Below, piece by piece: positions 1 to 10,662 of a stretch of 10,662 bases of DNA. Numbering within the stretch: position 1 is the stretch's first letter; every line of letters begins with the position of its first letter. A program made the position numbers and the translations under genes. Below the pieces are notes generated by a model. It made no database searches. It saw only the letters and a list, made by a program, of their open reading frames with translations, and had not been told where the DNA came from. The stretch is from a virus (taxonomy: Duplodnaviria > Heunggongvirae > Uroviricota > Caudoviricetes): positions 1 through 10,662 of the IMG/VR virus record IMGVR_UViG_2703718871_000019. The stretch is one strand, 5' to 3'.

Positions 1-798
1 TTAATGAACATTCGTCGCCGAAAACGAGTCTGTATCATTAGTGCGATGCAGTCTCTGCAAAGGATCTTGTTGATAAAATTGGCAGAAACGTTGCCACAAT
101 GAAGGGAAACGAGGAGCAAAAAGTTCTGGGGCGCTAAAGAAATATTCAGAAAGTACGGCAAAACATTCAGCAGGATCACTGGCAGCATAAGCATCAATGC
201 TCGCCGCATTCTCGCCAACTAATTCGATTTCTTCCTGAATGTTGTTCATTGCAGCATGAAGATCGTGTTCCCAGCCAGCAACCTCACGCAACGGAATAAA
301 GGGAACTCCGCTGGCGCGATCGCCGTTACGGGTGTCCAGCTTATGAGCGACTTCATGAATAATCAGGTTAAAACCAGAAGCATCAAAAGAATCTTGTATA
401 TCCAACCAGTTCAAAACGATAGGCCCTTGCTGCCAGCTCTGACCTGACTGAACAATACGTTGGTTATGCACCAGACCGATATCGTCTTCCCATTCATCAT
501 CGACCACAAATGGCGCAGGATAAATTAAGACTTCATGAAAACCATCCAGCCATTCCAGTCCTAACTCCAGAACGGGTAGGCAAAATAGAAGTGCTATCCG
601 GCAGCTTCTTAATGAATCCAGTTCAAAGCCCTGTAAAGGAACAAGCCGCTTTTGCTGTAAAAAACGTTCGGCAAGAGTGACTAATTTGCTTTGTTCCTGT
701 TCCGTCAGACACGTTAAAAGGGGGATCGATAGTGCTTCCTGCCAGGGAAGGGCAGTTTGATGTGCTGATTCTTGTACTTTCCAGGGCCACTTAATCAT
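1..798 (-). CDS. mtfA: MtfA (Mlc titration factor A), zinc-dependent peptidase-like protein; host gene
   Basis: The track ORF 1..837 (-) contains the sequence [23 protein letters not shown]... with an HEVAH zinc-binding motif, which I recognise as E. coli MtfA/YeeI. The likely true start is the internal Met at 798 (265 aa); the 13 upstream codons of the track ORF are probably not translated. Stop TAA is at 1-3. GC content is host-like. Confidence 0.88.
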
Positions 799-891
799 CG
801 TTTTGCTCGCAAACTCGTCACTTGAACAAAATTGCACGGACAGGGACTGTTAAAATGCCAAATTTCCTGGCATCATGGCAACCATCTGAAC

Positions 892-981
892 GGAGAGATG
901 CCGGAGCGGCTGAACGGACCGGTCTCGAAAACCGGAGTGGGGGCAACTCCACCGGGGGTTCAAATCCCCCTCTCTCCGCCA
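892..981 (+). tRNA. serU: tRNA-Ser (anticodon CGA), class II tRNA with long variable arm; prophage integration target
   Basis: Read by eye: acceptor stem GGAGAGA/TCTCTCC, discriminator G and encoded CCA at 979-981. Anticodon stem ACCGG/CCGGT encloses loop CTCGAAA, giving anticodon CGA. Long variable arm and T-arm GGGGG-TTCAAAT-CCCCC. Length 90 nt. mtfA is divergent and adjacent, as I recall for the E. coli serU locus. Confidence 0.93.
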
Positions 982-998
982 GAATTCAATCACTTACA

Positions 999-1060
999 CA
1001 TCATTAAGTCAATGATGAAAATCACACTTGGAATTACTTGGAATATTTTGTTGGAATATT
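999..1060. repeat. Candidate attL P'-arm: 7-bp inverted repeat CATCATT-n5-AATGATG (999-1017) and three direct TTGGAAT repeats (1028-1034, 1038-1044, 1051-1057)
   Basis: The repeats lie 18-80 bp downstream of the tRNA 3' end and overlap the 3' end of int, which is where arm-type Int binding sites sit in a lambda-type attL. The functional assignment is inference. Confidence 0.4.
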
Positions 1061-2059
1061 CTGGGGTAATGGTACATCCAGTGTGGGTGAGATCTTTACT
1101 TTTCTATCATAGATTAGCACCTGTCCTTCGGTCTTGTGACCAGAGAAAAGTTGCTTATCCCGGCTACTACCTTCGTAATCTGATATCCCCTTGGCTTTAA
1201 GGTCATGGAATGTAAAATCCGTCGCGATCCCTGATATTTGTCCAGCCAAATTTCTTGCCTCAACCCACATTTCATTAAATCCTTTATACATGTAACGGTT
1301 GCCGTACTGATTGCTGATTACATAGGCTGACTTGGGTAGCTGTTTAGCTTTTTCTATAACTGATTGCAGACGGGGAGTCCAGGCTTTTATCTGTTTCTTT
1401 CCTGTTTTACCTTGCTGGATAAAGATCCCGTCGTTTCCGATCTGTTCCCATTTCAGAGACAACACATCGGAAATCCTTGCTGCGCACAGGTATGCAATTT
1501 CCATTGCGATAAAAACAGGCACAGGAGCCACGCTTAATACGGCCTGGTATTCTTTGTCAGTCACATAGCGCTCTCGGTTTTTGGCCTTGAATTTACTTAC
1601 ACCGGTACAAGGATTAGCCTTTACATACCCTCGTTCATACCCCCAACTGTAAACGCGTGACATGCTGCTTTTTTCATGGTTTGCCTGCGTTTTACTCTGC
1701 TCGCCCCTTTTGTCCATGTATCGTCTGATGTGCTCTGGTTTTACAGAATCGGCCAGCACCTTACCAAATACGGCCAGCAGCTTTTTTTGATGTTGCAGAT
1801 AATCTTTTTGCGTTCTGGGACTAAGATCGCTGTAATAGGCGCTGGCGAGAAATTTTTCCCACAAACGCCCAAATGTCATTGCCCGATCGCGATGGTTAAT
1901 TGTTTCTTCGTACTTTTTCCATAATGCGGCTAAACCATCCTCGATTGCAGTTAAGGTTACAGATTCTCTGGATGTCGGTTTCCATACATAACTATATTTA
2001 TTGGGGTATACCTTTGGCGGTAATTTTTCGTGTTCGGGATTTTTCCTTCGTCTTCCCAT
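1034..2059 (-). CDS. int: Tyrosine recombinase, lambda-family phage integrase
   Basis: 341 aa. The N-terminus MGRRRKNPEHEKLPPKVY resembles the lambda Int arm-binding domain (MGRRRSHERRDLPPNLY). The C-terminal catalytic region has ARISDV (Arg), FHDLK (His) and GHKTEGQVLIYDR (His/Arg/Tyr nucleophile). The gene is immediately adjacent to the tRNA 3' end, and its start overlaps the xis stop (TAATG). Confidence 0.92.
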   Translation of the reverse strand: MGRRRKNPEHEKLPPKVYPNKYSYVWKPTSRESVTLTAIEDGLAALWKKYEETINHRDRAMTFGRLWEKFLASAYYSDLSPRTQKDYLQHQKKLLAVFGKVLADSVKPEHIRRYMDKRGEQSKTQANHEKSSMSRVYSWGYERGYVKANPCTGVSKFKAKNRERYVTDKEYQAVLSVAPVPVFIAMEIAYLCAARISDVLSLKWEQIGNDGIFIQQGKTGKKQIKAWTPRLQSVIEKAKQLPKSAYVISNQYGNRYMYKGFNEMWVEARNLAGQISGIATDFTFHDLKAKGISDYEGSSRDKQLFSGHKTEGQVLIYDRKVKISPTLDVPLPQNIPTKYSK

Positions 2060-2262
2060 TAGATCGCACCGAAATCAGGTTCAGCCTCACGTGGTGGTAA
2101 AGTGTTTCTACAGGTAAACAGTTCCCGACTGACGATCGGTTTTCCACTACGATTGGTATAGAACGGAAGCCCATTTTTTATTAACCAGTTGCGCTGGTGG
2201 CTTGCATATTTGCAGCCCGTTAATATTAGCAATTCATCTTCGGTTAAAAATAAGCTGCTCAT
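2059..2262 (-). CDS. xis: Excisionase-like small DNA-binding protein (Xis)
   Basis: 67 aa, directly upstream of int with a 1-nt stop/start overlap. The LTEDELLILTGCKYASHQRNWLIKNGLPF segment looks like the winged-helix of prophage excisionases (DUF4224-like, from memory). Position is canonical. Confidence 0.7.
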   Translation of the reverse strand: MSSLFLTEDELLILTGCKYASHQRNWLIKNGLPFYTNRSGKPIVSRELFTCRNTLPPREAEPDFGAI

Positions 2263-2278
2263 AGCTATATCTCATAAC

Positions 2279-2306
2279 CGCCGCTAACTATATGCGGTTA
2301 GCGGCG
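2279..2306. promoter_or_regulatory. Perfect 10-bp inverted repeat CGCCGCTAAC-n8-GTTAGCGGCG in the 58-bp exo-xis intergenic gap
   Basis: Seen directly: 2279-2288 is the reverse complement of 2297-2306. No U-run follows on the coding (minus) strand, so it is not an intrinsic terminator. It may be an operator or RNA processing element controlling xis-int. Confidence 0.4.
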
Positions 2307-2320
2307 ATCAGGGTTGAACA

Positions 2321-4759
2321 TTAAAAATCAGCCTGACTCGGGAACAGTTTTTGCCAGATAGCTGAAACGTATTTTGCCTGGTAACGCGCATCGTGCAGGG
2401 CATTATGGCGTTCACCCTCAAATGTGGTGACGTTGCGGGCATCGAAATCCATCACCAACCCCAGAGCGACCATCGTTCTTACATCGCGATCATTGGTGTA
2501 ACGCCACGGGCAGGGGATCTCCTGCCGTTCATATGAACGGCGTAAAATCACGTTGTCGAAGTTGGCTCCATTTCCCCAGACCTGAACAAAAAACTCACCG
2601 GAGTTTTCGTCTATAAATTCCCGTAATTGTAAAAGCGCATCATCAAGCGGTATTCGATCAGCTAAAATGGCGGCACGGGCTTCGCCAGAGCGTTGAAGCC
2701 ACCATTCGATGGTGCTTATGTCTACAGTGCCGCCACATGTACCCATATCAATTATTTTGCTGAATTCAGGCCCCTGCTCTCCGGTTTGTGGATCGAAAAA
2801 TACAGCGCCTATTGAGGCTATTGGTGCGTCAGGATTTTTGCCCATTGTTTCAAGGTCAATCATCAGATGGTGCCACAACCTGTTGGTGGATGTGATTTCA
2901 CGATGACCGTTCACCTTAATTAAGGGATTTGCTGTCTCGCCTGTTTCATTATTGCCATTGGCATGTTGATCGCCTTCGGTGCACTCCTTGTTCGGGAGTC
3001 CGGCACTTTCCATTTCCTCCGGATCTTTTTCCCGTGCTTCATCCTGGCTTTCTTCGTTGAATGTCTCCTGGTAGGTTGCGTCACCCATCACTGCGCCACA
3101 ATCAGGGCAGTTACCACCACCAGTCTGATTGCATGCGGTACAAACTTTTTCCTCTTCCTGTTGCACTACTGGTTCAGGTTGTTTCGTTTCTGGCTCGTTT
3201 TGTAACGCATTTGGGCTGTTTTGTTCCGCTTTCTGACCGTTCTGTTCCGTTTCTTGCTGGTTCTGGTTCACAGAATCGCAGGTTTCAATCCCCTTAACCC
3301 ATTTTGGATCATTCGGGTCGCTAATCCCTTCAACAAACTCACCACGAGAAGCGGCAAGCAATTTGTCGGCATCTGGTCGACTGATGTCTGCTGCCTCCAT
3401 AATTTTATTTACTTCTTCAGCAGTAACTTTTACCTGTGACTTGTCATCCAGCGGCTGCGGGTCCTGATGATGTTCAACTGTATCCGCTGCCATTGTTTCA
3501 GCCGTTGCCTGTTCATCTGCCATTGCGCCAGATGGTTGCGGGTTTTCTTCATTATTTTTTTCTTCTTCTGTTTTGCACTCAGCAGCCAGTCCGCCGTTAA
3601 TTTCTTCCAGGATATCTTTTTCCGGTGTATGCCGGGCAGCCGTGAGAGTTTCAGTTGTGGGATTCTCGTGATCGGTCTCTGTCAGGTTGGCATTGATATA
3701 CCCCTGAAGACGTCCCGGGTAGTGATAAAACTCAGGGGGGGCGCTCCGGATAAGTGCAAAAATAGCTGCGCGGGAATAGTCCAGGATACCAGGGGTTGCG
3801 CGAAGTGCTGGGGACCATTCCCTGAACGGACTTTCTTTTTTCAGGACGATTTCTTTTGCGCGACGATAAACGCTCACGGGTATTTCATAAATATTAAAAT
3901 CCATCGGAAGTGTGGCTGCTGCAATCTCCACATCCAGAGTATCGAGGGTGTGTACTAAATCAGGATTACGATCCGTTTTATTTCCGCCACCGGCATTTGC
4001 ACCGGAAGCCGTGCGGGTGATGCGAGAAACACGATTTCCTTTCATCCACTCTTTTGTCAGCAGACCTCGATCGGTATAGTCAGCGTCCAGGTATGCTTCG
4101 AAAAAAGCAGTCATTAACCCCAGACTGGAATTAACGGGATTAGGGAAAACTTTGTCTGTGTCGCGTACCAGTTTATGAAGGTCGCGAATCTCCAGCGGGT
4201 CGAGCAGCTTTGTGTTGTGGGAAATAGCCAGGGCAGTAACAGCCGGCAGTTCTTCAGCTCGTGCGATATGTAATGCCTGAAGTTCTTCCCGTGAAACGTG
4301 CGTTACCGGTTTTTCGCTGCCATGTTGCGCAAGCCAGCGAATGGGCAGTTCCTGACCGGAAATCGGCAGGAGCATATTATCCTCAATCTCAGCCATGTTT
4401 TCGCCATTGACGTTGGTATTGTCAGTGCTGGCTGGTTTGTCCTGAACTGAGGGGGAGGGCGCTATAAATATCATTGTGATGCCATCTTCCCCGCCTTTTT
4501 CATAGCGGTTGCAGAATTCAGTATCAAACACGCCTTCCGGTGGAAGGTCATTCACAACGGGGAAATGGACGCGGACGGGTTTTTTGAAATCATCTGCGTC
4601 GTAGCCTGCCTCGTCCATTGCAACAACGCACCGTGAGATGGCAACAGATAATTTTTTTGCTGTAGTCCAGTAAAAACCTCCTTTAATCCCAAGGCGTTTT
4701 CTGACCTTGTCATTTTTTGCTTCGCAATATAGCGAAAATTCTTCTTTATCAGTGCTCAT
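2321..4759 (-). CDS. Prophage exonuclease: RecE/exonuclease VIII-like N-terminal and central scaffold fused to a C-terminal DnaQ-like DEDDh 3'-5' exonuclease domain
   Basis: 812 aa with GAGGT SD 7 nt upstream of the ATG. Residues about 110-260 (NTNVNGENM...[26 protein letters not shown]...[30 protein letters not shown]) match what I remember of Rac RecE. An acidic low-complexity linker spans aa about 375-620 and contains a C-x2-C-x8-C-x2-C motif ([16 protein letters not shown], about nt 3095-3142). The C-terminal about 180 aa carry DEDDh motifs: MIDLETMG (Exo I), FDNVIL (Exo II) and [13 protein letters not shown] (Exo III), at about nt 2345-2890. Confidence 0.8.
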
Positions 4760-4851
4760 GGATAAACCTCATAACTATTTTAAGGTTGTACGAACCCCTG
4801 CCATTGCTGGCATGCTTAATCAACGGGTATGGCGTTAATACGGCTGCTGGG

Positions 4852-5040
4852 TTATCCAGCCGGTGTTTCGTTATTCAGGTACAGCGATACTTTTTTTAAC
4901 GGGAGGCATTCACCAGAAATTTTTTGCTCGTCTCTTGCCTGGAGGCAGGATTCTTTACTGGCATAAATTCCGGTAATCACATTCTGTGATTCACCCGTTA
5001 TAAGAAAAACCGTCATCACCAGTGCAAATGCTGAAGTCAT
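4852..5040 (-). CDS. Hypothetical small protein with hydrophobic N-terminus (possible signal or membrane anchor)
   Basis: 62 aa. Its start overlaps the stop of the upstream small ORF (ATGA-type coupling). The N-terminus MTSAFALVMTVFLITG is hydrophobic. It sits between rha and exo, where lambdoid phages carry kil/cIII-type small genes. No family recognised. Confidence 0.4.
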   Translation of the reverse strand: MTSAFALVMTVFLITGESQNVITGIYASKESCLQARDEQKISGECLPLKKVSLYLNNETPAG

Positions 5041-5225
5041 TGACGTTCTCCGAAAATACCAAGTTCAAGAAGGGCAATTCTGGAGAGTATGGAATTATCA
5101 TTGAGAAGATAAGGCTCATATTTTCTCATCTTAATGGCATCTTCAGTAAACTCCCGGTTACTGAGCAGAACACCAATATCAAAACACCCTTCAGACGTAT
5201 TAACGTTTGGTAATAACGTTTCCAT
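5037..5225 (-). CDS. Hypothetical small prophage protein
   Basis: 62 aa with GAGGA SD 8 nt upstream of the ATG, lying 10 bp after the Rha stop and translationally coupled to the next ORF. No family recognised. Confidence 0.45.
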   Translation of the reverse strand: METLLPNVNTSEGCFDIGVLLSNREFTEDAIKMRKYEPYLLNDNSILSRIALLELGIFGERQ

Positions 5226-5235
5226 TATCGCGTCC

Positions 5236-5793
5236 TCAACAATGAATTTTTAGTAATTGCTCCACAGTCATATTTTTAATTGCGCTCCGGTTTACAAGAG
5301 TCCAGCCTTGTTTCTCCAGATAAAACTGGAAGGTATCCAGGGTGCAGACCATTGCACCATCAGGAACGGTTTCAGTGAATTTGATATTGCCGTGTTCGTC
5401 GAGACGGATAACCAGGGTACGTCCGTCCCCGTGAATCATTTTGTCGGGAGACGGGGCGTTATTCTGGCGCAGTTCTTTCTCCATGCGATCGAACTCAGCG
5501 ATGTAGGCTTCTTTAAATGCAGCGGCTTTTTTGCCGGTGAAGCCCATCACCAGGAAAACGAAGCCGTTTTTGGTGATTTGGTACATAGGGAGTTTGCGCC
5601 CGGTTGAGTCGGTATATTCACTGGGCGAAAAATTTCGCTCAGTGAATTCTGCTGAACAGTCTAGACGTGAAATTTTTGCCAGTACATCTTTGTGTGGTTT
5701 CCGGAAATACTCGGCAACAGCTAAAGAGGATGTAACAGCACGCCCATTGGCGATAGTAATTTCAGGGTGAGAAAGGGCAGGGATAGTAGCCAT
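5236..5793 (-). CDS. Rha-family phage regulatory protein (Phage_pRha domain)
   Basis: The segment AVTSSLAVAEYFRKPHKDVLAKI...LPMYQITKNGFVFLVMGFTGKKAAAFKEAYIAEFDRME matches the Rha domain pattern. The track ORF runs to 6087 (283 aa), but the Rha domain begins at about aa 110 and an intrinsic terminator lies inside the extension. I therefore prefer the internal start at 5793 (GGAGG 8 nt upstream, product MATIPALSHPEITIANGR..., 185 aa). Alternative starts are 5820 or 6087. Confidence 0.75.
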   Translation of the reverse strand: MATIPALSHPEITIANGRAVTSSLAVAEYFRKPHKDVLAKISRLDCSAEFTERNFSPSEYTDSTGRKLPMYQITKNGFVFLVMGFTGKKAAAFKEAYIAEFDRMEKELRQNNAPSPDKMIHGDGRTLVIRLDEHGNIKFTETVPDGAMVCTLDTFQFYLEKQGWTLVNRSAIKNMTVEQLLKIHC

Positions 5794-5957
5794 GATGGCA
5801 GCCTCCATGATGAATTTCATTAACTCACCACCGGAGGTAGCAATCTCATGGGTGGTGAGACGCACAGGGTTGCTACAACCGGTCATCATGGAACCCGGCC
5901 AGCCTTGCGGCTGCCCTGCACGCCCCACCATAATCTGAATGTGGCTGTGCATTACGC

Positions 5958-5982
5958 ATAAAAAAACCGCCTGAGCGCGGTT
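5958..5982 (-). terminator. Rho-independent terminator for leftward transcription (tL1-like)
   Basis: On the minus strand: stem AACCGC / GCGGTT with loop GCTCAG, followed by T-run TTTTTTT-AT (plus strand A7 at 5960-5966 precedes the hairpin at 5965-5982). No T-run follows on the plus strand, so it is unidirectional. Confidence 0.55.
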
Positions 5983-6574
5983 ATGCGCCATGATGAACAT
6001 CGGGGTAGCAATCCCGGCACCCGCTTTATGAGGTGCAGGTGCACTATAATTCCACCCGTTCTGGTTTTCAATAGCTACATTCAACATTTTCTCTTACCTT
6101 TCATCACCGAAGTGAACTTTGTCGATGCAGTGCCTGGTGCCTCCAGGTGACGTTAACCAGTTAACAATTAACGCCGGAATACAGAAGTATGCCCGTTACG
6201 CCCCGTAAAAGACCACTTTACGGTTTTAACTGTTCCGCGTGCGCTTAGCCGCATTCACCGCATCACAAAATTCACTTTAAAAAGGGTGGCAGAGCAGTCA
6301 CGGAGTAGAACTGATGCCACCAAAGACTACACATGGGTATTGTGGCGGGGCTGTCACTTAAGCGTATGGTCAACCTGACAACCCGGTGCATTTTCTGGAG
6401 CAATGGAGGAAACCCCAGCCATACTTACCGCCGCGCCATTTCGCGGATTGCCACAACCGGAAGCGCACGGTCGAAGAAATCTAACGACAAGCCTTCTAAG
6501 GGAAAGAGCTTCGCCGTACGCTTTCGCGTTGTGTGCCTGCTTTTAACCACGTCAGGCGAGGTGGTTTCCGTCGT

Positions 6575-6624
6575 TCCCCAACGACAGGAAATCTGTATAA
6601 TCTGGATATCCCCAACAACAGGAA
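6575..6624. promoter_or_regulatory. Two 16-bp direct repeats TCCCCAAC(G/A)ACAGGAA (6575-6590, 6609-6624) flanking a TG-TATAAT element (6594-6601)
   Basis: The repeats are 15/16 identical and 34 bp apart, which is not a multiple of 3 and argues against coding. A perfect -10 hexamer lies between them. Candidate promoter and regulator binding sites upstream of the + strand 2-TM gene. Confidence 0.4.
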
Positions 6625-6799
6625 GGTGTTTTATATGGTGGTTCAAAAGAATTGTTCAGGTACTGGTAAGCCTGCGGACAGGGCGGACATTCCGAATACC
6701 AGGAAACATATACCTGAGAAAAACATACGACCAAAACCATCTCCAGCTCCTTCAGAGGAGAGGGGGAACAGCAACAATCAAGCAAGCAGGTGATGATAT

Positions 6800-7246
6800 A
6801 TGGACCGGGATGATATTCTTGACAGGGTTTTATATGGCTATTTTCTTGAACAACTATTCTCTGTAGCGACTGGTCGTCTCGATAAACTTCTCTCAGTGGT
6901 GAGTATTATCCTCGGTTCATCTGTCATTGGTGGATTTATTCCTGAAGTTTCTGGAGTTCTCATTGTTGTGATAGCAACCGTTCAAACGATTTACGGATTC
7001 GGACAAAAGTCAGGTAACGCAATGAGAAAATCCGCAGAATATCTGCAGCTTTATGATGATGCAGAAAAATATTCCGATTCGGAATTGAAAATTCAGTTAA
7101 AGCTTCTGGAAAAAACAGATGATAATATTTGGTCGTCGCTTAAAGATATCGCAATCTTAAAAACCCGGATCAAAATAGGAATCTCCGTAGAACAACAAGA
7201 GAAACTGTCTGCAAAATCCAAATTGATGCGATTCCTTTGTGGTTAG
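6800..7246 (+). CDS. AT-rich moron gene encoding a 148-aa two-TM membrane protein with a charged helical C-terminal tail; candidate superinfection-exclusion or abortive-infection effector
   Basis: AGGTGA SD 7 nt upstream of the ATG. GC content is about 33-35 percent against about 50 percent in flanks (two 60-nt lines counted by hand). Predicted TM1 LLSVVSIILGSSVIGGFI and TM2 VLIVVIATVQTIYGF, followed by a Lys/Glu-rich helical tail. It runs opposite to the surrounding leftward operon, in the position that sieB occupies in Rac-type prophages. No family recognised with certainty. Confidence 0.6.
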   Translation: MDRDDILDRVLYGYFLEQLFSVATGRLDKLLSVVSIILGSSVIGGFIPEVSGVLIVVIATVQTIYGFGQKSGNAMRKSAEYLQLYDDAEKYSDSELKIQLKLLEKTDDNIWSSLKDIAILKTRIKIGISVEQQEKLSAKSKLMRFLCG

Positions 7247-7344
7247 GAATACCCAGATTGTTAAAGATCATGCCGGATGCTTACCCGTGTCCGGCGAACG
7301 TATTCCACTTCGCCTGTGGAGAACTCTTTAATTACTAACCTTCA

Positions 7345-7497
7345 TCAGTCAGAGTTTCTTGCTAACCAGCGACGCGCGCCAGCTGCGGTTTTAAACGTTT
7401 TGCTTCTGGTATACGTCATCGCGGTAAACGTGCCGTCCTGGTTGGGAAACACGCCGCATACCAGAGATTCGTTGTTGCCAAGATTGAGCGTATCCAT
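7345..7497 (-). CDS. Small prophage protein, YdaF-like (DUF1391-like), 50 aa
   Basis: Below the 60-aa cutoff of the track and found by manual translation: ATG at 7497 with GAGGT SD 5 nt upstream, product MDTLNLGNNESLVCGVFPNQDGTFTAMTYTRSKTFKTAAGARRWLARNSD, stop TGA at 7345-7347. It resembles my recollection of Rac YdaF and lies between the repressor operon and the sieB-position gene as in Rac. The overlapping + strand ORF 7277..7537 is rejected. Confidence 0.5.
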   Translation of the reverse strand: MDTLNLGNNESLVCGVFPNQDGTFTAMTYTRSKTFKTAAGARRWLARNSD

Positions 7498-7701
7498 GTT
7501 GACCTCATTTACCCTTAACGCCGGGTCGCGGAACTAAAAACCTGCTGCGCTGTTATACAAAGTATTCCCGCCGTCATGTTCATACGCCTCGGGCTGGCTA
7601 CTTAACCCCTGACCACTGCCGGGTAACTCGAAGTATTGCCTGGCGTTCTGTGGGGCGGGGGGGTTGATGAATGAACAATACCACTACTATTTAATTATGT
7701 A

Positions 7702-7716
7702 AATAGCAGTGCTATT
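7702..7716. promoter_or_regulatory. Perfect palindrome AATAGCA-g-TGCTATT; candidate OL-type operator over a leftward early promoter
   Basis: 7-bp arms are exact reverse complements. The half-site TGCTATT recurs twice in the repressor/cro intergenic region (8808-8814, 8833-8839). It sits just downstream of the repressor-operon terminator and upstream of the ydaF-like gene, with -35/-10-like hexamers nearby on the minus strand (TTGCCA; TATTGT). Confidence 0.4.
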
Positions 7717-7724
7717 ATCGTGGC

Positions 7725-7750
7725 AAGAAAAAAACCACCCGAAGGTGGTT
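7725..7750 (-). terminator. Rho-independent terminator ending the repressor-antitoxin-toxin operon
   Basis: On the minus strand: AACCACC-TTCG-GGTGGTT (7-bp stem, UUCG tetraloop) followed by TTTTTTTCT, 15 bp downstream of the toxin stop codon. No T-run follows on the plus strand. Confidence 0.7.
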
Positions 7751-7764
7751 GTTGACAGGAAGGA

Positions 7765-8055
7765 TTAACAGGTTTTGTTTGGATACTGTCTTCGTGAGTG
7801 AACTACATTTACGATCTCGATGTTAGATGCTGTTACTCGGTAAAGTATTATGTAGTTAGGATGAGTCACTATCTCACGAAGACTTGGAACTCTTTCGCTC
7901 GGTGGGTACAGATAAGGGTGTTCAGTAAGTGACAAAACTGATGTTTCAATGCGTATTTTTAGTCTACGTGCAGCGGGAGGGTTTTCCTTAGCAATATAGG
8001 CTACGATCTGACGTAAATCATCACGTGCAGAAGGTAGCCATAAAATGGGCAGCAT
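7765..8055 (-). CDS. ParE/RelE-superfamily type II toxin (ParE2-like)
   Basis: 96 aa. N-terminus MLPILWLPSARDDLRQIVAYIAKENPPAARRL and C-terminal ...IEIVNVVHSRRQYP are typical of ParE toxins. Its start overlaps the stop of the upstream antitoxin (TAATG). Confidence 0.85.
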   Translation of the reverse strand: MLPILWLPSARDDLRQIVAYIAKENPPAARRLKIRIETSVLSLTEHPYLYPPSERVPSLREIVTHPNYIILYRVTASNIEIVNVVHSRRQYPNKTC

Positions 8056-8246
8056 TACTCACTCCTGTTCGTTGCAGCTAATTGAGCAATAAGGTTTTCC
8101 ATTTCAGCCATTACTTCGTCATGTGGAATTGCAGGACGGGGATCTGAGAGGCTTGCTGCCACTTTGGCTCGCAACCATTCGTTATAGCTGTTTTCTTGTT
8201 CGACTGTTTCAAATTCAGAAATTATCGGGGAAAGGGCTGTACTCAT
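8055..8246 (-). CDS. Small type II antitoxin, PaaA2-like, partner of the ParE-type toxin
   Basis: 63 aa, acidic, immediately upstream of and translationally coupled to the toxin. GGAGG SD 6 nt upstream of the ATG. Size and arrangement match the PaaA2 antitoxin of the O157 paaR2-paaA2-parE2 module as I recall it. Confidence 0.7.
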   Translation of the reverse strand: MSTALSPIISEFETVEQENSYNEWLRAKVAASLSDPRPAIPHDEVMAEMENLIAQLAATNRSE

Positions 8247-8263
8247 GTTTTGACCTCCTCAGA

Positions 8264-8764
8264 TTAGGCGCGACGACCCTTTTGCGCGGCTAGCCATCGC
8301 GCAACGATTTCTTCAATTGATTCTTTTTTCTCCTTCATTTCCTTAAGCATTTTCTCTTTATCTTCTTTGGGGAAAGCCCTGAACGTCTGGAGCAAATCCC
8401 GCTCCATGGGGTCTATATTAAACGGAAGTTCGTTTTCCGATTGTTCCATATCTGCAGATATAGTGACAACATTGTCCTCCCCAGATTCTTGGGGATACAT
8501 CCTTACAATTTGTAACAACTCGGCCATATCTGGTCTGATTGACTCGGGAGGAACTTGCAGCAACCCTGCGAACTTGATAACAGCCTCAAGATTTAAAGGT
8601 GTCTGACCATTTAGATAATGGCTTACAGCTCCCTGTGTCGAAAATCCCAGAATTTCTGCCGCACGCTCTTGGGTTAACCCTAGTTGATTTTTTTTCGCCG
8701 TCCAGATTTCTTTCAGTCTCTGGGCGGCTTGCAGGTCGATCTCTGACAGGGATTTTCTTTTCAT
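8264..8764 (-). CDS. HTH (XRE/cI-type) transcriptional regulator, PaaR2/RacR-like; likely prophage immunity repressor and TA operon regulator
   Basis: 166 aa. N-terminal helix-turn-helix LGLTQERAAEILGFSTQGAVSHYLNGQ. No S24 peptidase domain is visible in the C-terminus. It is the first gene of the operon and is divergent from the cro-like gene across a repeat-rich operator region. Confidence 0.8.
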   Translation of the reverse strand: MKRKSLSEIDLQAAQRLKEIWTAKKNQLGLTQERAAEILGFSTQGAVSHYLNGQTPLNLEAVIKFAGLLQVPPESIRPDMAELLQIVRMYPQESGEDNVVTISADMEQSENELPFNIDPMERDLLQTFRAFPKEDKEKMLKEMKEKKESIEEIVARWLAAQKGRRA

Positions 8765-8871
8765 ACCTTCAATTCTAATAAGATTATTAATCTCTTTGAA
8801 ATAGTGATGCTATTTACTTTTAAAAATAACAATGCTATTAATGATCGTGATGACATCACATGAGGTGAACA
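8765..8871. promoter_or_regulatory. Divergent promoter/operator region between the repressor and the cro-like gene (OR analogue)
   Basis: AT-rich 107-bp gap containing two TGCTATT motifs (8808-8814, 8833-8839) and the perfect palindrome GTGATG-a-CATCAC (8847-8859) just upstream of the cro-like SD. Confidence 0.55.
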
Positions 8872-9147
8872 ATGAATCTTGGAGAATATTTGCATCATTC
8901 CGGTATAACTCAGAAGCATTTTGCTGAAATTGTTGGGGTAACCCAAGGGATGGTAAGCCATGTCATTACCGGACGGGCGAAACTTACGGGGGAAAAAATT
9001 TTACGCTGGTGCGAAGCAACAGGCTGGATAGTAACTCCGCACGAGATTGATAGCAGTACTTATCCCAACCCAACCGACGGCTTACCTGTCGAGTATCAGG
9101 CTAACACACAACCAGAGGCGGGGGTGATTCATGAAAATCAAGCATGA
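8872..9147 (+). CDS. Cro/YdaS-like HTH DNA-binding protein
   Basis: 91 aa with GAGGTGA SD. HTH segment QKHFAEIVGVTQGMVSHVITGRAKLTGEKI. Divergent from the repressor and first gene of the rightward operon. Confidence 0.75.
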   Translation: MNLGEYLHHSGITQKHFAEIVGVTQGMVSHVITGRAKLTGEKILRWCEATGWIVTPHEIDSSTYPNPTDGLPVEYQANTQPEAGVIHENQA

Positions 9148-9556
9148 ACACATCCGCATGGCAATGAATGCCTGGGCGTATCCAGACGGTGAGAAAGTTC
9201 CAGCAGCTGAAATAGCCCGGACTTATTTCGAGCTGGGGATGACGTTCCCGGAACTGTACGACGACAGCCATCCGGAAGCCCTGGCTCGTAATACCCAGAA
9301 AATTTTCCGCTGGGTGGAGAAGGACACGTCTGATGCTGTTGAAAAAATTCAGGCGCTGTTACCGGCGATCGAAAAGGCGATGCCGCCTTTGCTGGTGGCC
9401 CGTATGCGCAGTCACAGTTCTGAATATTACCGGGAGATCGTCGAACGACGGGATCGGCTGGTGAAAGATGTGGATGATTTTGTCGCTGTAGCGATCGCCT
9501 GGGGCACCCTGACTAACAGTGGTGGTCAGCCTGGTAATGCAGTTGTTGTGCATTGA
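9131..9556 (+). CDS. YdaT-like protein (cII-position regulator/toxin-like family)
   Basis: 141 aa, overlapping the cro-like gene by 17 nt. Size and position match Rac YdaT; the sequence-level resemblance is from memory only. Confidence 0.65.
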   Translation: MKIKHEHIRMAMNAWAYPDGEKVPAAEIARTYFELGMTFPELYDDSHPEALARNTQKIFRWVEKDTSDAVEKIQALLPAIEKAMPPLLVARMRSHSSEYYREIVERRDRLVKDVDDFVAVAIAWGTLTNSGGQPGNAVVVH

Positions 9557-9618
9557 CCAACAATATTTATACCGGATTTCTTCCGGAAGTTCGTGGGTAA
9601 AGTTCGGTATCAGAAGAG

Positions 9619-10662
9619 GTGAGTATGGCTAATGCCTGGCTCAGATTGTGGCATGACATGCCAAATGACCCCAAGTGGCGAACGATTGCCAGGGTATCAG
9701 GACAGCCAATCGCAACAGTGATGGCAGTGTATATCCATCTTCTGGTGAGCGCGTCACGAAATGTCACGACATGTCACGGCGTGTCACTACGTGGTCACAT
9801 TGATGTCACGACGGAAGATTTAGCAAGTGCGCTTGATGTGACGGAAGACGTAATTGATTCAATTTTGCATGCAATGCAGGGGCGGGTTCTGGATGGTGAC
9901 CTTATTTCCGGATGGGAAAAACGTCAGGTGCTGAAAGAGGACAATGGTAACGTTTCGCAAACGGCAAAATCCCCGGCAGAGCGCAAGAGAGCGCAGCGGG
10001 AGCGCGAAAAGCTGCGGAAATATGATGCTGATTGTCACGATGAGTCACGACGTGTCACGCATCTGTCACGACAAGTCACGACAGATAAAGATACAGATAC
10101 AGAATTAAACCCCACACATAACGCGCGCATGCGCGAGAGTGCTCCAACCGGTGAGTCGAATGGTGCGTCGTTGCAGACAGCCGAACCTGAATACCTGGAC
10201 GGCCTGAGCGAACCGATCGGGAAATTTTCGATGACCACTGTCTGGCAGCCGTCGCCGGATTTTCGACAACGGGCAGCAGTGTGGGGTATGGCTCTGCCTG
10301 AGCCGGAATTTACACCTGCTGAGCTTGCCGCATTCCGGGATTACTGGATGGCGGAGGGGAAGGTTTTCACGCAGGTTCAGTGGGAGCAGAAATTTGCCCG
10401 CCACGTGCAGCACGTCAGGGCACAGGTAAAACCAGTCAGCAAGGGGGTAAGCCATGCAGCATCAGGTGGCACGGCATCACGGGCAGTTCAGAAAATCCGG
10501 GCAGCACGAGAACAGTGGGAACGTGAAAACGGATTTATCAGCAACGGAAACGGCCTGGAAGCTGTGGGAACTTATGGGGGAGGTGTATTCGAACCGATGG
10601 ACCCAGAAGAACGGGGCTGCGCCGTCGAAACTCTGGATTGCTCAGATTGGCGCGATGACTGA
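9619..10662 (+). CDS. Phage replication initiation protein (YdaU/O-like N-terminal region with DnaT-like C-terminal domain)
   Basis: 347 aa with AGAGGTGAG SD. N-terminus ANAWLRLWHDMPNDPKWRTIARVSG is typical of prophage replication proteins. C-terminal WQPSPDFRQRAAVWGMALPEPEFTPAELAAFRDYWMAEGKVF resembles the primosomal DnaT C-terminal domain. The gene contains iteron arrays. Stop TGA is the last 3 nt of the window. Confidence 0.8.
   Translation: MSMANAWLRLWHDMPNDPKWRTIARVSGQPIATVMAVYIHLLVSASRNVTTCHGVSLRGHIDVTTEDLASALDVTEDVIDSILHAMQGRVLDGDLISGWEKRQVLKEDNGNVSQTAKSPAERKRAQREREKLRKYDADCHDESRRVTHLSRQVTTDKDTDTELNPTHNARMRESAPTGESNGASLQTAEPEYLDGLSEPIGKFSMTTVWQPSPDFRQRAAVWGMALPEPEFTPAELAAFRDYWMAEGKVFTQVQWEQKFARHVQHVRAQVKPVSKGVSHAASGGTASRAVQKIRAAREQWERENGFISNGNGLEAVGTYGGGVFEPMDPEERGCAVETLDCSDWRDD
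9751..9845. repeat. Iteron array 1: six to seven GTCACGA/GTCAC repeats at 10-11 bp spacing inside the replication gene
   Basis: GTCAC at 9753, 9763, 9773, 9783, 9794 and 9805, with a degenerate TGTGACG at about 9837. The repeats are in frame and encode ...SASRNVTTCHGVSLRGHIDVTTED.... Confidence 0.65.
10031..10110. repeat. Iteron array 2 (five GTCACG repeats) followed by an AT-rich tract; probable replication origin
   Basis: GTCACG at 10034, 10044, 10054, 10065 and 10075 with 10-11 bp phasing, followed immediately by ACAGATAAAGATACAGATACAGAATTAAA. This is the lambda-type arrangement of iterons plus an AT-rich unwinding region within the initiator gene. Confidence 0.65.

Follow-up and report, generated by a model that had tools for sequence, protein, structure and literature searches.

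What does a 0.7-kb piece of prophage DNA encode when it is dense in repeats and hairpins and no convincing gene is seen in it? This question is raised by positions 6088 to 6799 of a stretch of 10,662 nucleotides (nt) from a virus of the Caudoviricetes (IMG/VR virus record IMGVR_UViG_2703718871_000019, positions 1 to 10,662; hereafter the window). A preliminary description had proposed that the whole region is a structured non-coding RNA, a leader or a regulatory platform for the adjacent gene encoding a two-transmembrane (2-TM) protein on the plus strand. We find that it very probably consists instead of two unrelated parts standing back to back: a minus-strand cassette encoding DicF, which is a small RNA (sRNA), and the front of a plus-strand two-gene cassette. 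What is new here is modest, namely a variant DicF allele, a fold of the whole DicF precursor that matches its published processing, and an unannotated but conserved small open reading frame (ORF) in an uncharacterised cassette.

The motifs that had drawn attention to the region are all in place: three TTAAC copies (6153-6157, 6161-6165 and 6168-6172), a CCGTAAA-n7-TTTACGG hairpin followed by TTTT (6203-6223), a CCGCG-n6-CGCGG palindrome (6431-6446), two direct repeats (6570-6590 and 6604-6624) at a 34-nt spacing with TATAAT (6596-6601) between them, and four overlapping ORFs, two on the plus strand (6333..6866 and 6533..6793) and two on the minus strand (6425..6646 and 6552..6785).

DicF and its folded precursor on the minus strand

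A scan with the Rfam covariance models, a check that the preliminary description had itself suggested, placed DicF (RF00039) at 6284..6335 on the minus strand, where it scores 61.1 bits (gathering score 48; E = 1e-11; full model 1-52); canonical DicF alleles score 72-77 bits. DicF has its intrinsic terminator there, made of a stem at 6285-6321 and a UUUUU tract at 6279-6283, and this stem is kept by a compensatory change from GGCGG/CCGCC to GGUGG/CCACC (C-G to U-A). The structured RNA that had been tied to the plus strand and to the 2-TM gene is really DicF with its precursor, read from the minus strand. Beyond the matches given in this text, no other Rfam family was found in 6336-6799, none reaching E <= 1 over 5700-7400 or E <= 5 over 6060-6640.

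The known counterpart is the DicF/dicBF operon of the cryptic prophage Qin in E. coli K-12 (Faubladier et al. 1990 as cited in PMC5069750; bioRxiv 10.1101/2023.04.14.536235). DicF of the window occupies the location expected in a dicB-type early-left operon (ydfA ... dicF ... dicB), with two insertions breaking the classical order. Both systems have the same RNA family and terminator hairpin, with an almost identical 3' (ftsZ-pairing) part, and the unannotated Qin spacers of ~340 nt upstream and ~174 nt downstream of dicF match the window in conserved sequence. The neighbours also correspond, with a ydfA-like gene upstream and dicB, a DUF1482 gene (in the ydfD position) and recE downstream. 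In contrast to Qin, the window has a replaced seed and lacks 14 nt at the RNase E site, an inverted two-gene cassette stands in for ydfB and ydfC, and an isrK-C4-Rha module lies between DicF and dicB.

How far does the conserved element extend on either side of the sRNA? A pattern scan of viral contigs for DicF returned 120 loci, and all of them share a block of ~430 nt whose ends recur at 6113 and 6544; among complete E. coli genomes, 4727 of 5426 have a match to some part of the region. The flanks of the block are conserved as well as DicF itself, long invariant runs alternating with three indel-rich patches. Since no reading frame survives the indels between alleles, the block is non-coding. 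Coding was likewise rejected for the ORFs 6333..6866 (+), 6425..6646 (-) and 6552..6785 (-), which are interrupted by indels of 4, 14 and 3+2+1 nt between alleles.

That this part of the DNA is structured beyond chance was borne out, and the structure is better read from the minus strand. The minus-sense RNA 6105-6535 folds with -163.4 kcal/mol (z = -4.29), beating 100 of 100 shuffled sequences, whereas the plus-sense RNA of the same interval reaches a weaker -141.4 kcal/mol (z = -2.44). A consensus fold calculated with RNAalifold from 27 alleles has 96 pairs arranged in three domains, and 99.2% of its cells are paired, compared with 35-46% when the partners are slid. Wobble pairs tell the two strands apart, as 2571 of 2591 cells pair in the minus sense (266 of them as G-U) and only 2319 in the plus sense.

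In this predicted minus-strand fold, the upstream part of the DicF precursor (6336..6526; RNAalifold and pair counts) comprises helix A, a 15-bp duplex with a variable apex that is presumed to be an RNase III site (6511-6526 with 6458-6474), followed by helix B (6450-6457 with 6339-6346), which closes a multibranch domain. Hairpin C (6431-6446) is the CCGCG palindrome, hairpin D (6385-6429) has a variable apex and hairpin E (6348-6384), with 12 bp, adjoins DicF. On the other side, a downstream domain (6114..6273; RNAalifold, pair counts and fold energy) corresponds to the dicF-dicB spacer of Qin; helix F, a long-range pairing of 6256-6273 with 6114-6132, closes it around hairpin G (6237-6252), the variable hairpin H (6176-6236), which contains the CCGTAAA hairpin, hairpin I (6149-6175), formed by the TTAAC repeats, and hairpin J (6133-6147). 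The hairpins of this domain include one with CCUGG. In this model, hairpins of the minus-sense DicF precursor account for the TTAAC repeats, the CCGCG palindrome and the CCGTAAA hairpin. On the plus strand, the 6203-6223 hairpin with its TTTT is the sole terminator-like site in a terminator scan; we rejected a terminator role because the hairpin is allele-specific, being deleted or replaced in most alleles, and because nothing is transcribed into it on that strand.

In K-12, dicF sits in a "long untranslated region" of the dicBF operon (PMC5069750), where cleavage by RNase III generates the 5' end of a DicF species of 190 nt and the 3' end of another of 72 nt, and the 53-nt form is due to RNase E (bioRxiv 10.1101/2023.04.14.536235; PMC5069750). 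Counted on a K-12-like allele, the 190-nt species implies a 5' end at ~6463, inside helix A (bioRxiv 10.1101/2023.04.14.536235), and the 72-nt species, which ends 19 nt past the 53-nt form, stops at ~6265, inside helix F (PMC5069750). From these K-12 fragment lengths we infer that the dense hairpins serve as a processing scaffold of the DicF precursor. The comparison so yields a concrete fold of the entire precursor, in which each of the two published RNase III cuts falls within a long helix.

We propose that DicF is embedded in a highly folded untranslated RNA of ~430 nt that would be part of a leftward polycistronic transcript (ydfA ... dicF ... dicB). RNase III would cut two long duplexes, helix A upstream and helix F downstream, releasing a 190-nt 5'-extended and a 72-nt 3'-extended DicF, and RNase E would then trim the precursor to the mature sRNA. 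This mature, Hfq-dependent DicF of 52 nt, with its own intrinsic terminator, would base-pair with ftsZ and other host mRNAs and repress them.

The DicF of the window is a minority allele, found at ~7 of 123 loci. From this allele 14 nt (UCUGUUAUCAAUUU) are missing where RNase E cuts canonical DicF, and its 5' single-stranded seed is exchanged, with CAUGUGUAGUC in place of UUUCUGGUGACG. Since this exchange replaces the published xylR-pairing seed, xylR pairing is predicted to be lost: the duplex energy of the 5' 14-mer is only -6.1 kcal/mol in the window against -15.0 kcal/mol in K-12, which is at background level (shuffled 14-mers, -8.6 +/- 1.8). By sequence comparison, the ftsZ-pairing loop and the 3' arm differ from K-12 by one loop base and a compensated stem pair; direct prediction of the DicF-ftsZ duplex was uninformative for long sequences. 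Judged from its sequence, the window DicF probably keeps control of ftsZ and loses control of xylR. Another locus, L164 (3480-3560, minus strand, aligned to 6284-6340), has conserved DicF flanks and terminator stem around a different loop and seed (GGCGGCAUCAG-UUAAAUGCUGUGG-CUGAUGUCCGCC) and resembles a DicF scaffold with a new seed; Rfam no longer calls it DicF.

Some observations weigh against this account of the minus strand. The RNase III sites were placed by means of fragment lengths in K-12 and hence from another allele, the window allele is without the AU-rich stretch at which RNase E acts on canonical DicF, and the inverted cassette, which separates DicF from the operon promoter, could lower read-through. 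Changes on both sides of a pair occur in only 2 of the 96 block pairs, the alleles being closely related, so that the fold is supported mainly by compatibility, wobble asymmetry and energy. This scant covariation is what one would also expect if the flanks were conserved only as a young recombination unit spreading among mosaic prophages, with a fold that is functionless beyond the DicF terminator hairpin; the breakpoints, sharp and recurrent as is typical of module boundaries, and the variable patches, which resemble swapped alleles, would fit this as well. Yet both RNase III cuts known from the literature fall in the two longest helices, and the variable patches are confined to the tips of hairpins that every allele forms anew. 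Among the pairs that vary, moreover, 20 have a change on just one side and remain paired, and in 11 the sole departures are unpaired cells. Together with the energy z-score of -4.29, this makes a functionless fold improbable, and we favour the processing scaffold.

Could the downstream domain (6114-6273, minus strand) be a separate sRNA of the STnc100/PasD type and thus more than a dicF-dicB spacer? STnc100 and PasD are known sRNAs from other places in lambdoid prophages (bioRxiv 10.64898/2026.05.13.724894) and share a layout with the window domain, a closing helix around several hairpins, one of them with a GGAGGCACC loop; the Rfam model of STnc100 (RF02076) gives a sub-threshold match with the same closing helix and internal hairpins. 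However, this match reaches 29.1 bits against a gathering score of 47 and covers model positions 30-148 of 206, so membership in the family was rejected. A signal scan found no promoter or terminator belonging to the domain itself, PasD maps near the Q antiterminator gene in another prophage region, and the K-12 study saw no promoter within the operon (bioRxiv 10.1101/2023.04.14.536235). We therefore regard a separate sRNA as unlikely and keep to the domain as the downstream part of the DicF precursor.

A small ORF and its leader on the plus strand

The right-hand part of the region belongs to the other strand and is, in part, a gene. The preliminary description had found no plausible protein or ribosome-binding site in any of the four ORFs; within 6533..6793 (+), however, an ATG at 6635, placed after AGGAAGG (6620-6626), opens a conserved frame of 52 codons (MVVQKNCSGTGKPADRADIPNTRKHIPEKNIRPKPSPAPSEERGNSNNQASR; 6635..6793, plus strand) that is unannotated and ends 6 nt before the start of the 2-TM gene. 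Comparison of homologous sequences shows 6635-6793 to be protein-coding. The proportion of synonymous differences exceeds that of nonsynonymous ones (pS > pN) in 11 of 11 pairs, +0 is the sole stop-free frame of the six, and in a divergent E. coli allele the frame stays open despite a deletion, which is in frame (12 nt). A conserved frame with synonymous bias is the very observation that had been named as one that would speak against a non-coding region, and the non-coding proposal holds for 6088-6634 but fails for 6635-6793. The frame antisense to the small ORF was rejected as a gene: it shares its wobble positions, yet stops in relatives.

The small ORF is a regular companion of the 2-TM gene. 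2-TM homologues from E. coli, Salmonella and metagenomic prophages (65%, 59%, 58%, 43% and 33% identical) each have an ORF of 33-50 codons 4-12 nt upstream. All these upstream ORFs encode the core K/E/D-H-x-P followed by a proline-rich tail, and those beside the closer 2-TM homologues (>= 58% identity), the window included, have the fuller motif H-I/M-P-E-K-N/D-I/V-R-P. Altogether, orthologues of the small ORF adjoin 2-TM homologues of 33-92% identity. The gene is rarely called, with six proteins in a collection of 5.8 billion, and its predicted product is hydrophilic and proline-rich.

The second gene of the cassette (6800..7246, plus strand), just outside the region, encodes the 2-TM protein of 148 amino acids and matches phrog_6315 (E = 4e-24). 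Its family counts ~140 clusters at 50% identity. The protein had no match in Pfam, NCBIfam, PADLOC or the PDB, and no profile of a known anti-phage defence or exclusion protein in PADLOC, Pfam or NCBIfam matched it. A SLATT effector domain or another named fold was rejected, even with 66 members of the family taken into account: not one of these matched a Pfam model of SLATT, the SLATT matches in BFVD were not significant (E = 0.5-6.5) and the AF2 model was poor (pLDDT 62). A scan for the 2-TM gene in one genome per species found nothing.

Upstream of the small ORF, the cassette has a leader of ~100 nt (6535-6634). It begins with a junction element (6535..6565) that is common to several plus-strand cargo cassettes and contains an invariant stem GCCTG/CAGGC (6535-6539 with 6553-6557); a second helix of pseudoknot type (6546-6550 with 6561-6565) is possible and has one covarying pair (C-G to U-A in 3 of 8 sequences). 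Hairpin L2 follows at 6566..6590 (arms 6566-6575 and 6580-6590, CCCC loop), its 3' arm being the first direct repeat. In L2, 6 of 10 pairs have changes on both sides, and its covariation score of 0.259 compares with 0.10 in shuffles (0 of 500 reach 0.259) and with at most 0.068 when the partners are slid. The last element (6596..6634, plus strand) is a duplicated translation-initiation module that combines a conserved -10 candidate (TATAAT at 6596-6601 or TAATCT at 6598-6603) with CCCCAACAACAGGAAGG, which is the second repeat, and with AGGAAGG as the Shine-Dalgarno sequence of the small ORF. It is kept in 8 of the 8 cassettes compared, including those with proteins only 33-43% identical, and in the prophages of E. 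coli and Salmonella conservation is stricter in the non-coding leader than in either of the cassette proteins encoded downstream.

On this sequence comparison, the direct repeats of the preliminary description represent a single translation-initiation module present twice. A sister cargo, of the L002 type, has a real ATG in its first repeat copy at the place of the window's TATAAT. Inside the small ORF, at 6685-6705, there is a third copy, which is weaker. The module is in frame with the ORF, encoding DIPNNRK just 5' of the start codon and DIPNTRK within it, which suggests that the small ORF grew by duplicating its own leader. The CA-rich repeats were also considered as targets of GcvB, and this was rejected, since the duplex energies of K-12 GcvB with seven leaders were no better than those with shuffled targets; that the CAACAACA core is not kept in L166 and L171 also counts against it.

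A promoter of the cassette is inferred from the -10 candidates. A sigma-70 promoter was rejected, there being no plus-strand promoter-like site in the scan, and inspection by eye gave no convincing sigma-32, sigma-E or sigma-54 box at the cassette.

What speaks against reading this part as a plus-strand leader and gene comes from several sides. The promoter scan found no acceptable -35 box before the -10 candidate of the cassette; the wobble test on L2 slightly favours the minus strand (75 of 80 cells against 68 of 80), a poor fit to a plus-strand mRNA leader; the small ORF changes rapidly in its N-terminal half, where the nonsynonymous-to-synonymous ratio (omega) reaches ~0.5; and four loci (L144, L156, L158 and L162) have lost most of the small ORF and kept the 2-TM gene. 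In these loci, the loss is a deletion of ~115 nt between two CAAGCAGGTG copies, equivalent to ~6650-6790 of the window.

The last two of these points would be easier to understand if the 52-codon frame were a regulatory upstream ORF (uORF), encoding a proline-rich stalling or coupling peptide that gates translation of the 2-TM gene and is no stable partner protein. Its stop lies 4-12 nt before the 2-TM start, with the 2-TM Shine-Dalgarno sequence within the end of the ORF, and a short conserved motif is followed by variable proline runs of up to 8 consecutive residues in L164 and 7 in L171. On the other hand, the window copy is without a PPP run (RPKPSPAPS), and the motif lies at least 20 codons before the stop, too far away for a ribosome stalling at it to cover the start of the 2-TM gene. 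A uORF of this kind is a possibility we take seriously but do not favour; that the frame is translated into a conserved small protein is our preferred reading.

A recurrent insertion point beside the DicF block

If the whole 0.7 kb were a plus-strand structured leader, riboregulator or regulatory platform of the 2-TM gene, one would expect the structured block to travel with that gene, as the preliminary description had suggested. A covarying conserved hairpin and conserved repeats do stand directly 5' of the cassette, and two other cargo types have, at the leader position, a hairpin that buries the Shine-Dalgarno sequence. However, conservation linked to the 2-TM gene begins only at ~6535. 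Of 113 DicF loci, 80 have block 6113-6544 with no plus-strand cargo beside it, and the cassette occurs without that block, and without DicF, in P2-like Salmonella prophages and in L171 and L172, where C4 RNA or nothing is found nearby. Owing to its 266 G-U cells, the fold is one of the minus strand, and the Rfam match to DicF lies on that strand too. The leader reading of the whole region is thus largely refuted and in our view very unlikely; what stands of it is the right-hand ~100 nt (6535-6634), which do belong to the 2-TM unit, and what falls is block 6113-6544.

The remaining 33 of the 113 DicF loci carry a common junction, CAGGCGAGGTGG, followed by at least 4 different plus-strand cargoes. 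Since the same junction precedes different cargoes beside the DicF block, we read window positions 6544-6565 as a recurrent insertion point. Loci with this insertion point include L002, L014, L034, L105 and L113, and the unrelated cargoes are the 2-TM cassette, a CxxC...CxxC (zinc-ribbon-like) protein, a 66-residue protein and a 106-residue membrane protein. A hairpin GCCGGA-n12-TCCGGC (7271-7296), just past the 2-TM gene, marks the right edge of the insertion when the window is compared with cargo-less loci such as that of phage Tritos (L003).

Among the cassettes compared, leader and small ORF always travel with the 2-TM gene, the four loci with a mostly deleted small ORF aside. We propose that a mobile two-gene cassette was inserted in the opposite orientation at this recurrent point beside the DicF block, and that its front would consist of the conserved leader, with the covarying hairpin and the duplicated ribosome-binding module, then the 52-codon ORF and then the 2-TM gene. 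The position and orientation of the 2-TM gene suggest that it may be a lysogenic-conversion or exclusion gene. In these respects the cassette may be comparable to exclusion or defence morons that oppose the early-left operon, such as lambda sieB. What the window has in common with morons of the sieB type is a small gene for a membrane protein that is placed between repressor and early-left genes, runs on the opposite strand and is flanked by hairpins; unlike SieB, to which it has no sequence or profile similarity, the window cassette has an obligatory small upstream ORF. More speculatively, and with low confidence, leader, small ORF and 2-TM gene might together form an undescribed mobile module in which the peptide, as partner or as stalling uORF, and the leader hairpin gate a membrane-active exclusion or abortive-infection effector.

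Prophage context and significance

As a whole, the window represents the early-left arm of a lambdoid prophage that is Qin/Rac-like; its transcription runs leftward, on the minus strand. Its features include a helix-turn-helix repressor (8264-8764), a RelB-family antitoxin (8055-8246, minus strand) and a ParE-family toxin (7765-8055, minus strand). The RelB/ParE pair (7765-8246) stands between the prophage repressor and the ydfA-like gene and is therefore inside the early-left operon. That gene, a DUF1391/YdfA-like gene of 50 amino acids (7345-7497, minus strand), matches phrog_751 (E = 9e-35) and is annotated in the RefSeq twin; a plus-strand ORF of 86 amino acids that overlaps it (7277-7537) has no matches and is probably spurious. 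To the left of the region come, in that order, a Rha/Ant-type gene, dicB (its product DicB, PF05358, encoded at 5037-5225, minus strand), a DUF1482 gene and genes for a RecE-type exonuclease, an excisionase and an integrase; a tRNA lies at 892-978. A RefSeq copy in E. coli FHI_NMBU_10 (NZ_CP046539.1, 796.6-797.8 kb) is 99.3% identical and carries no annotation in the region studied here.

On its left side, the DicF block joins not the dicB ribosome-binding site but an isrK-C4-Rha module resembling immI of P1, across a recombination junction at 6088..6113 (minus strand); breakpoint 6113 recurs in ~120 loci, and the alignments have two alternative right-hand continuations. The module, all on the minus strand, starts with a sigma-70 promoter (6071-6043, 10 of 12 matches in a promoter scan), followed by isrK (5960-6036; RF01394, 64.7 bits) and C4 antisense RNA (5848-5935; RF01695, 77.9 bits). 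The minus-strand terminator that had been thought to bound the region on the left is real, being the isrK terminator (5965-5982), but lies ~100 nt outside it. Promoter, isrK and C4 all fall within the annotated 5' end of the 'Rha' ORF (5236-6087, minus strand; 'Rha family' in RefSeq), so that the first ~89 codons of this 283-residue ORF overlie RNA genes and their promoter; the truly non-coding stretch therefore probably extends leftward to ~5821.

The Phage_ASH family (Pfam PF10554) matches residues 14-109 of this ORF, which are translated RNA genes, and the Rha domain begins only at residue 110-119; PF10554 may thus be built partly on translated RNA genes. A likelier start of Rha is the ATG at 5820, preceded by GGUGGUGAG. 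This ribosome-binding region of the Rha/Ant-type gene is complementary to the C4 3' arm, CUCACCACC, which is like the c4/ant control of P1. The order promoter, isrK (a1/b1-like), C4, Rha/Ant-type gene is that of P1/P7 immI (c4-icd-ant) and of Gifsy-1 isrK-orf45-anrP; unlike these, the module of the window, which lies outside the region in question, is spliced into the dicF-dicB spacer.

These findings change no major concept. They identify a stretch that resembled unexplained structured DNA as the well-studied DicF locus, which is blank in PGAP-annotated RefSeq copies and of which only the 53-nt dicF is annotated in K-12. They also add one conserved, almost never annotated gene of 33-52 codons that is tightly linked to an orphan 2-TM family. 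Lastly, natural DicF scaffolds occur with exchanged seeds, and the target sets of DicF are therefore predicted to differ between strains.

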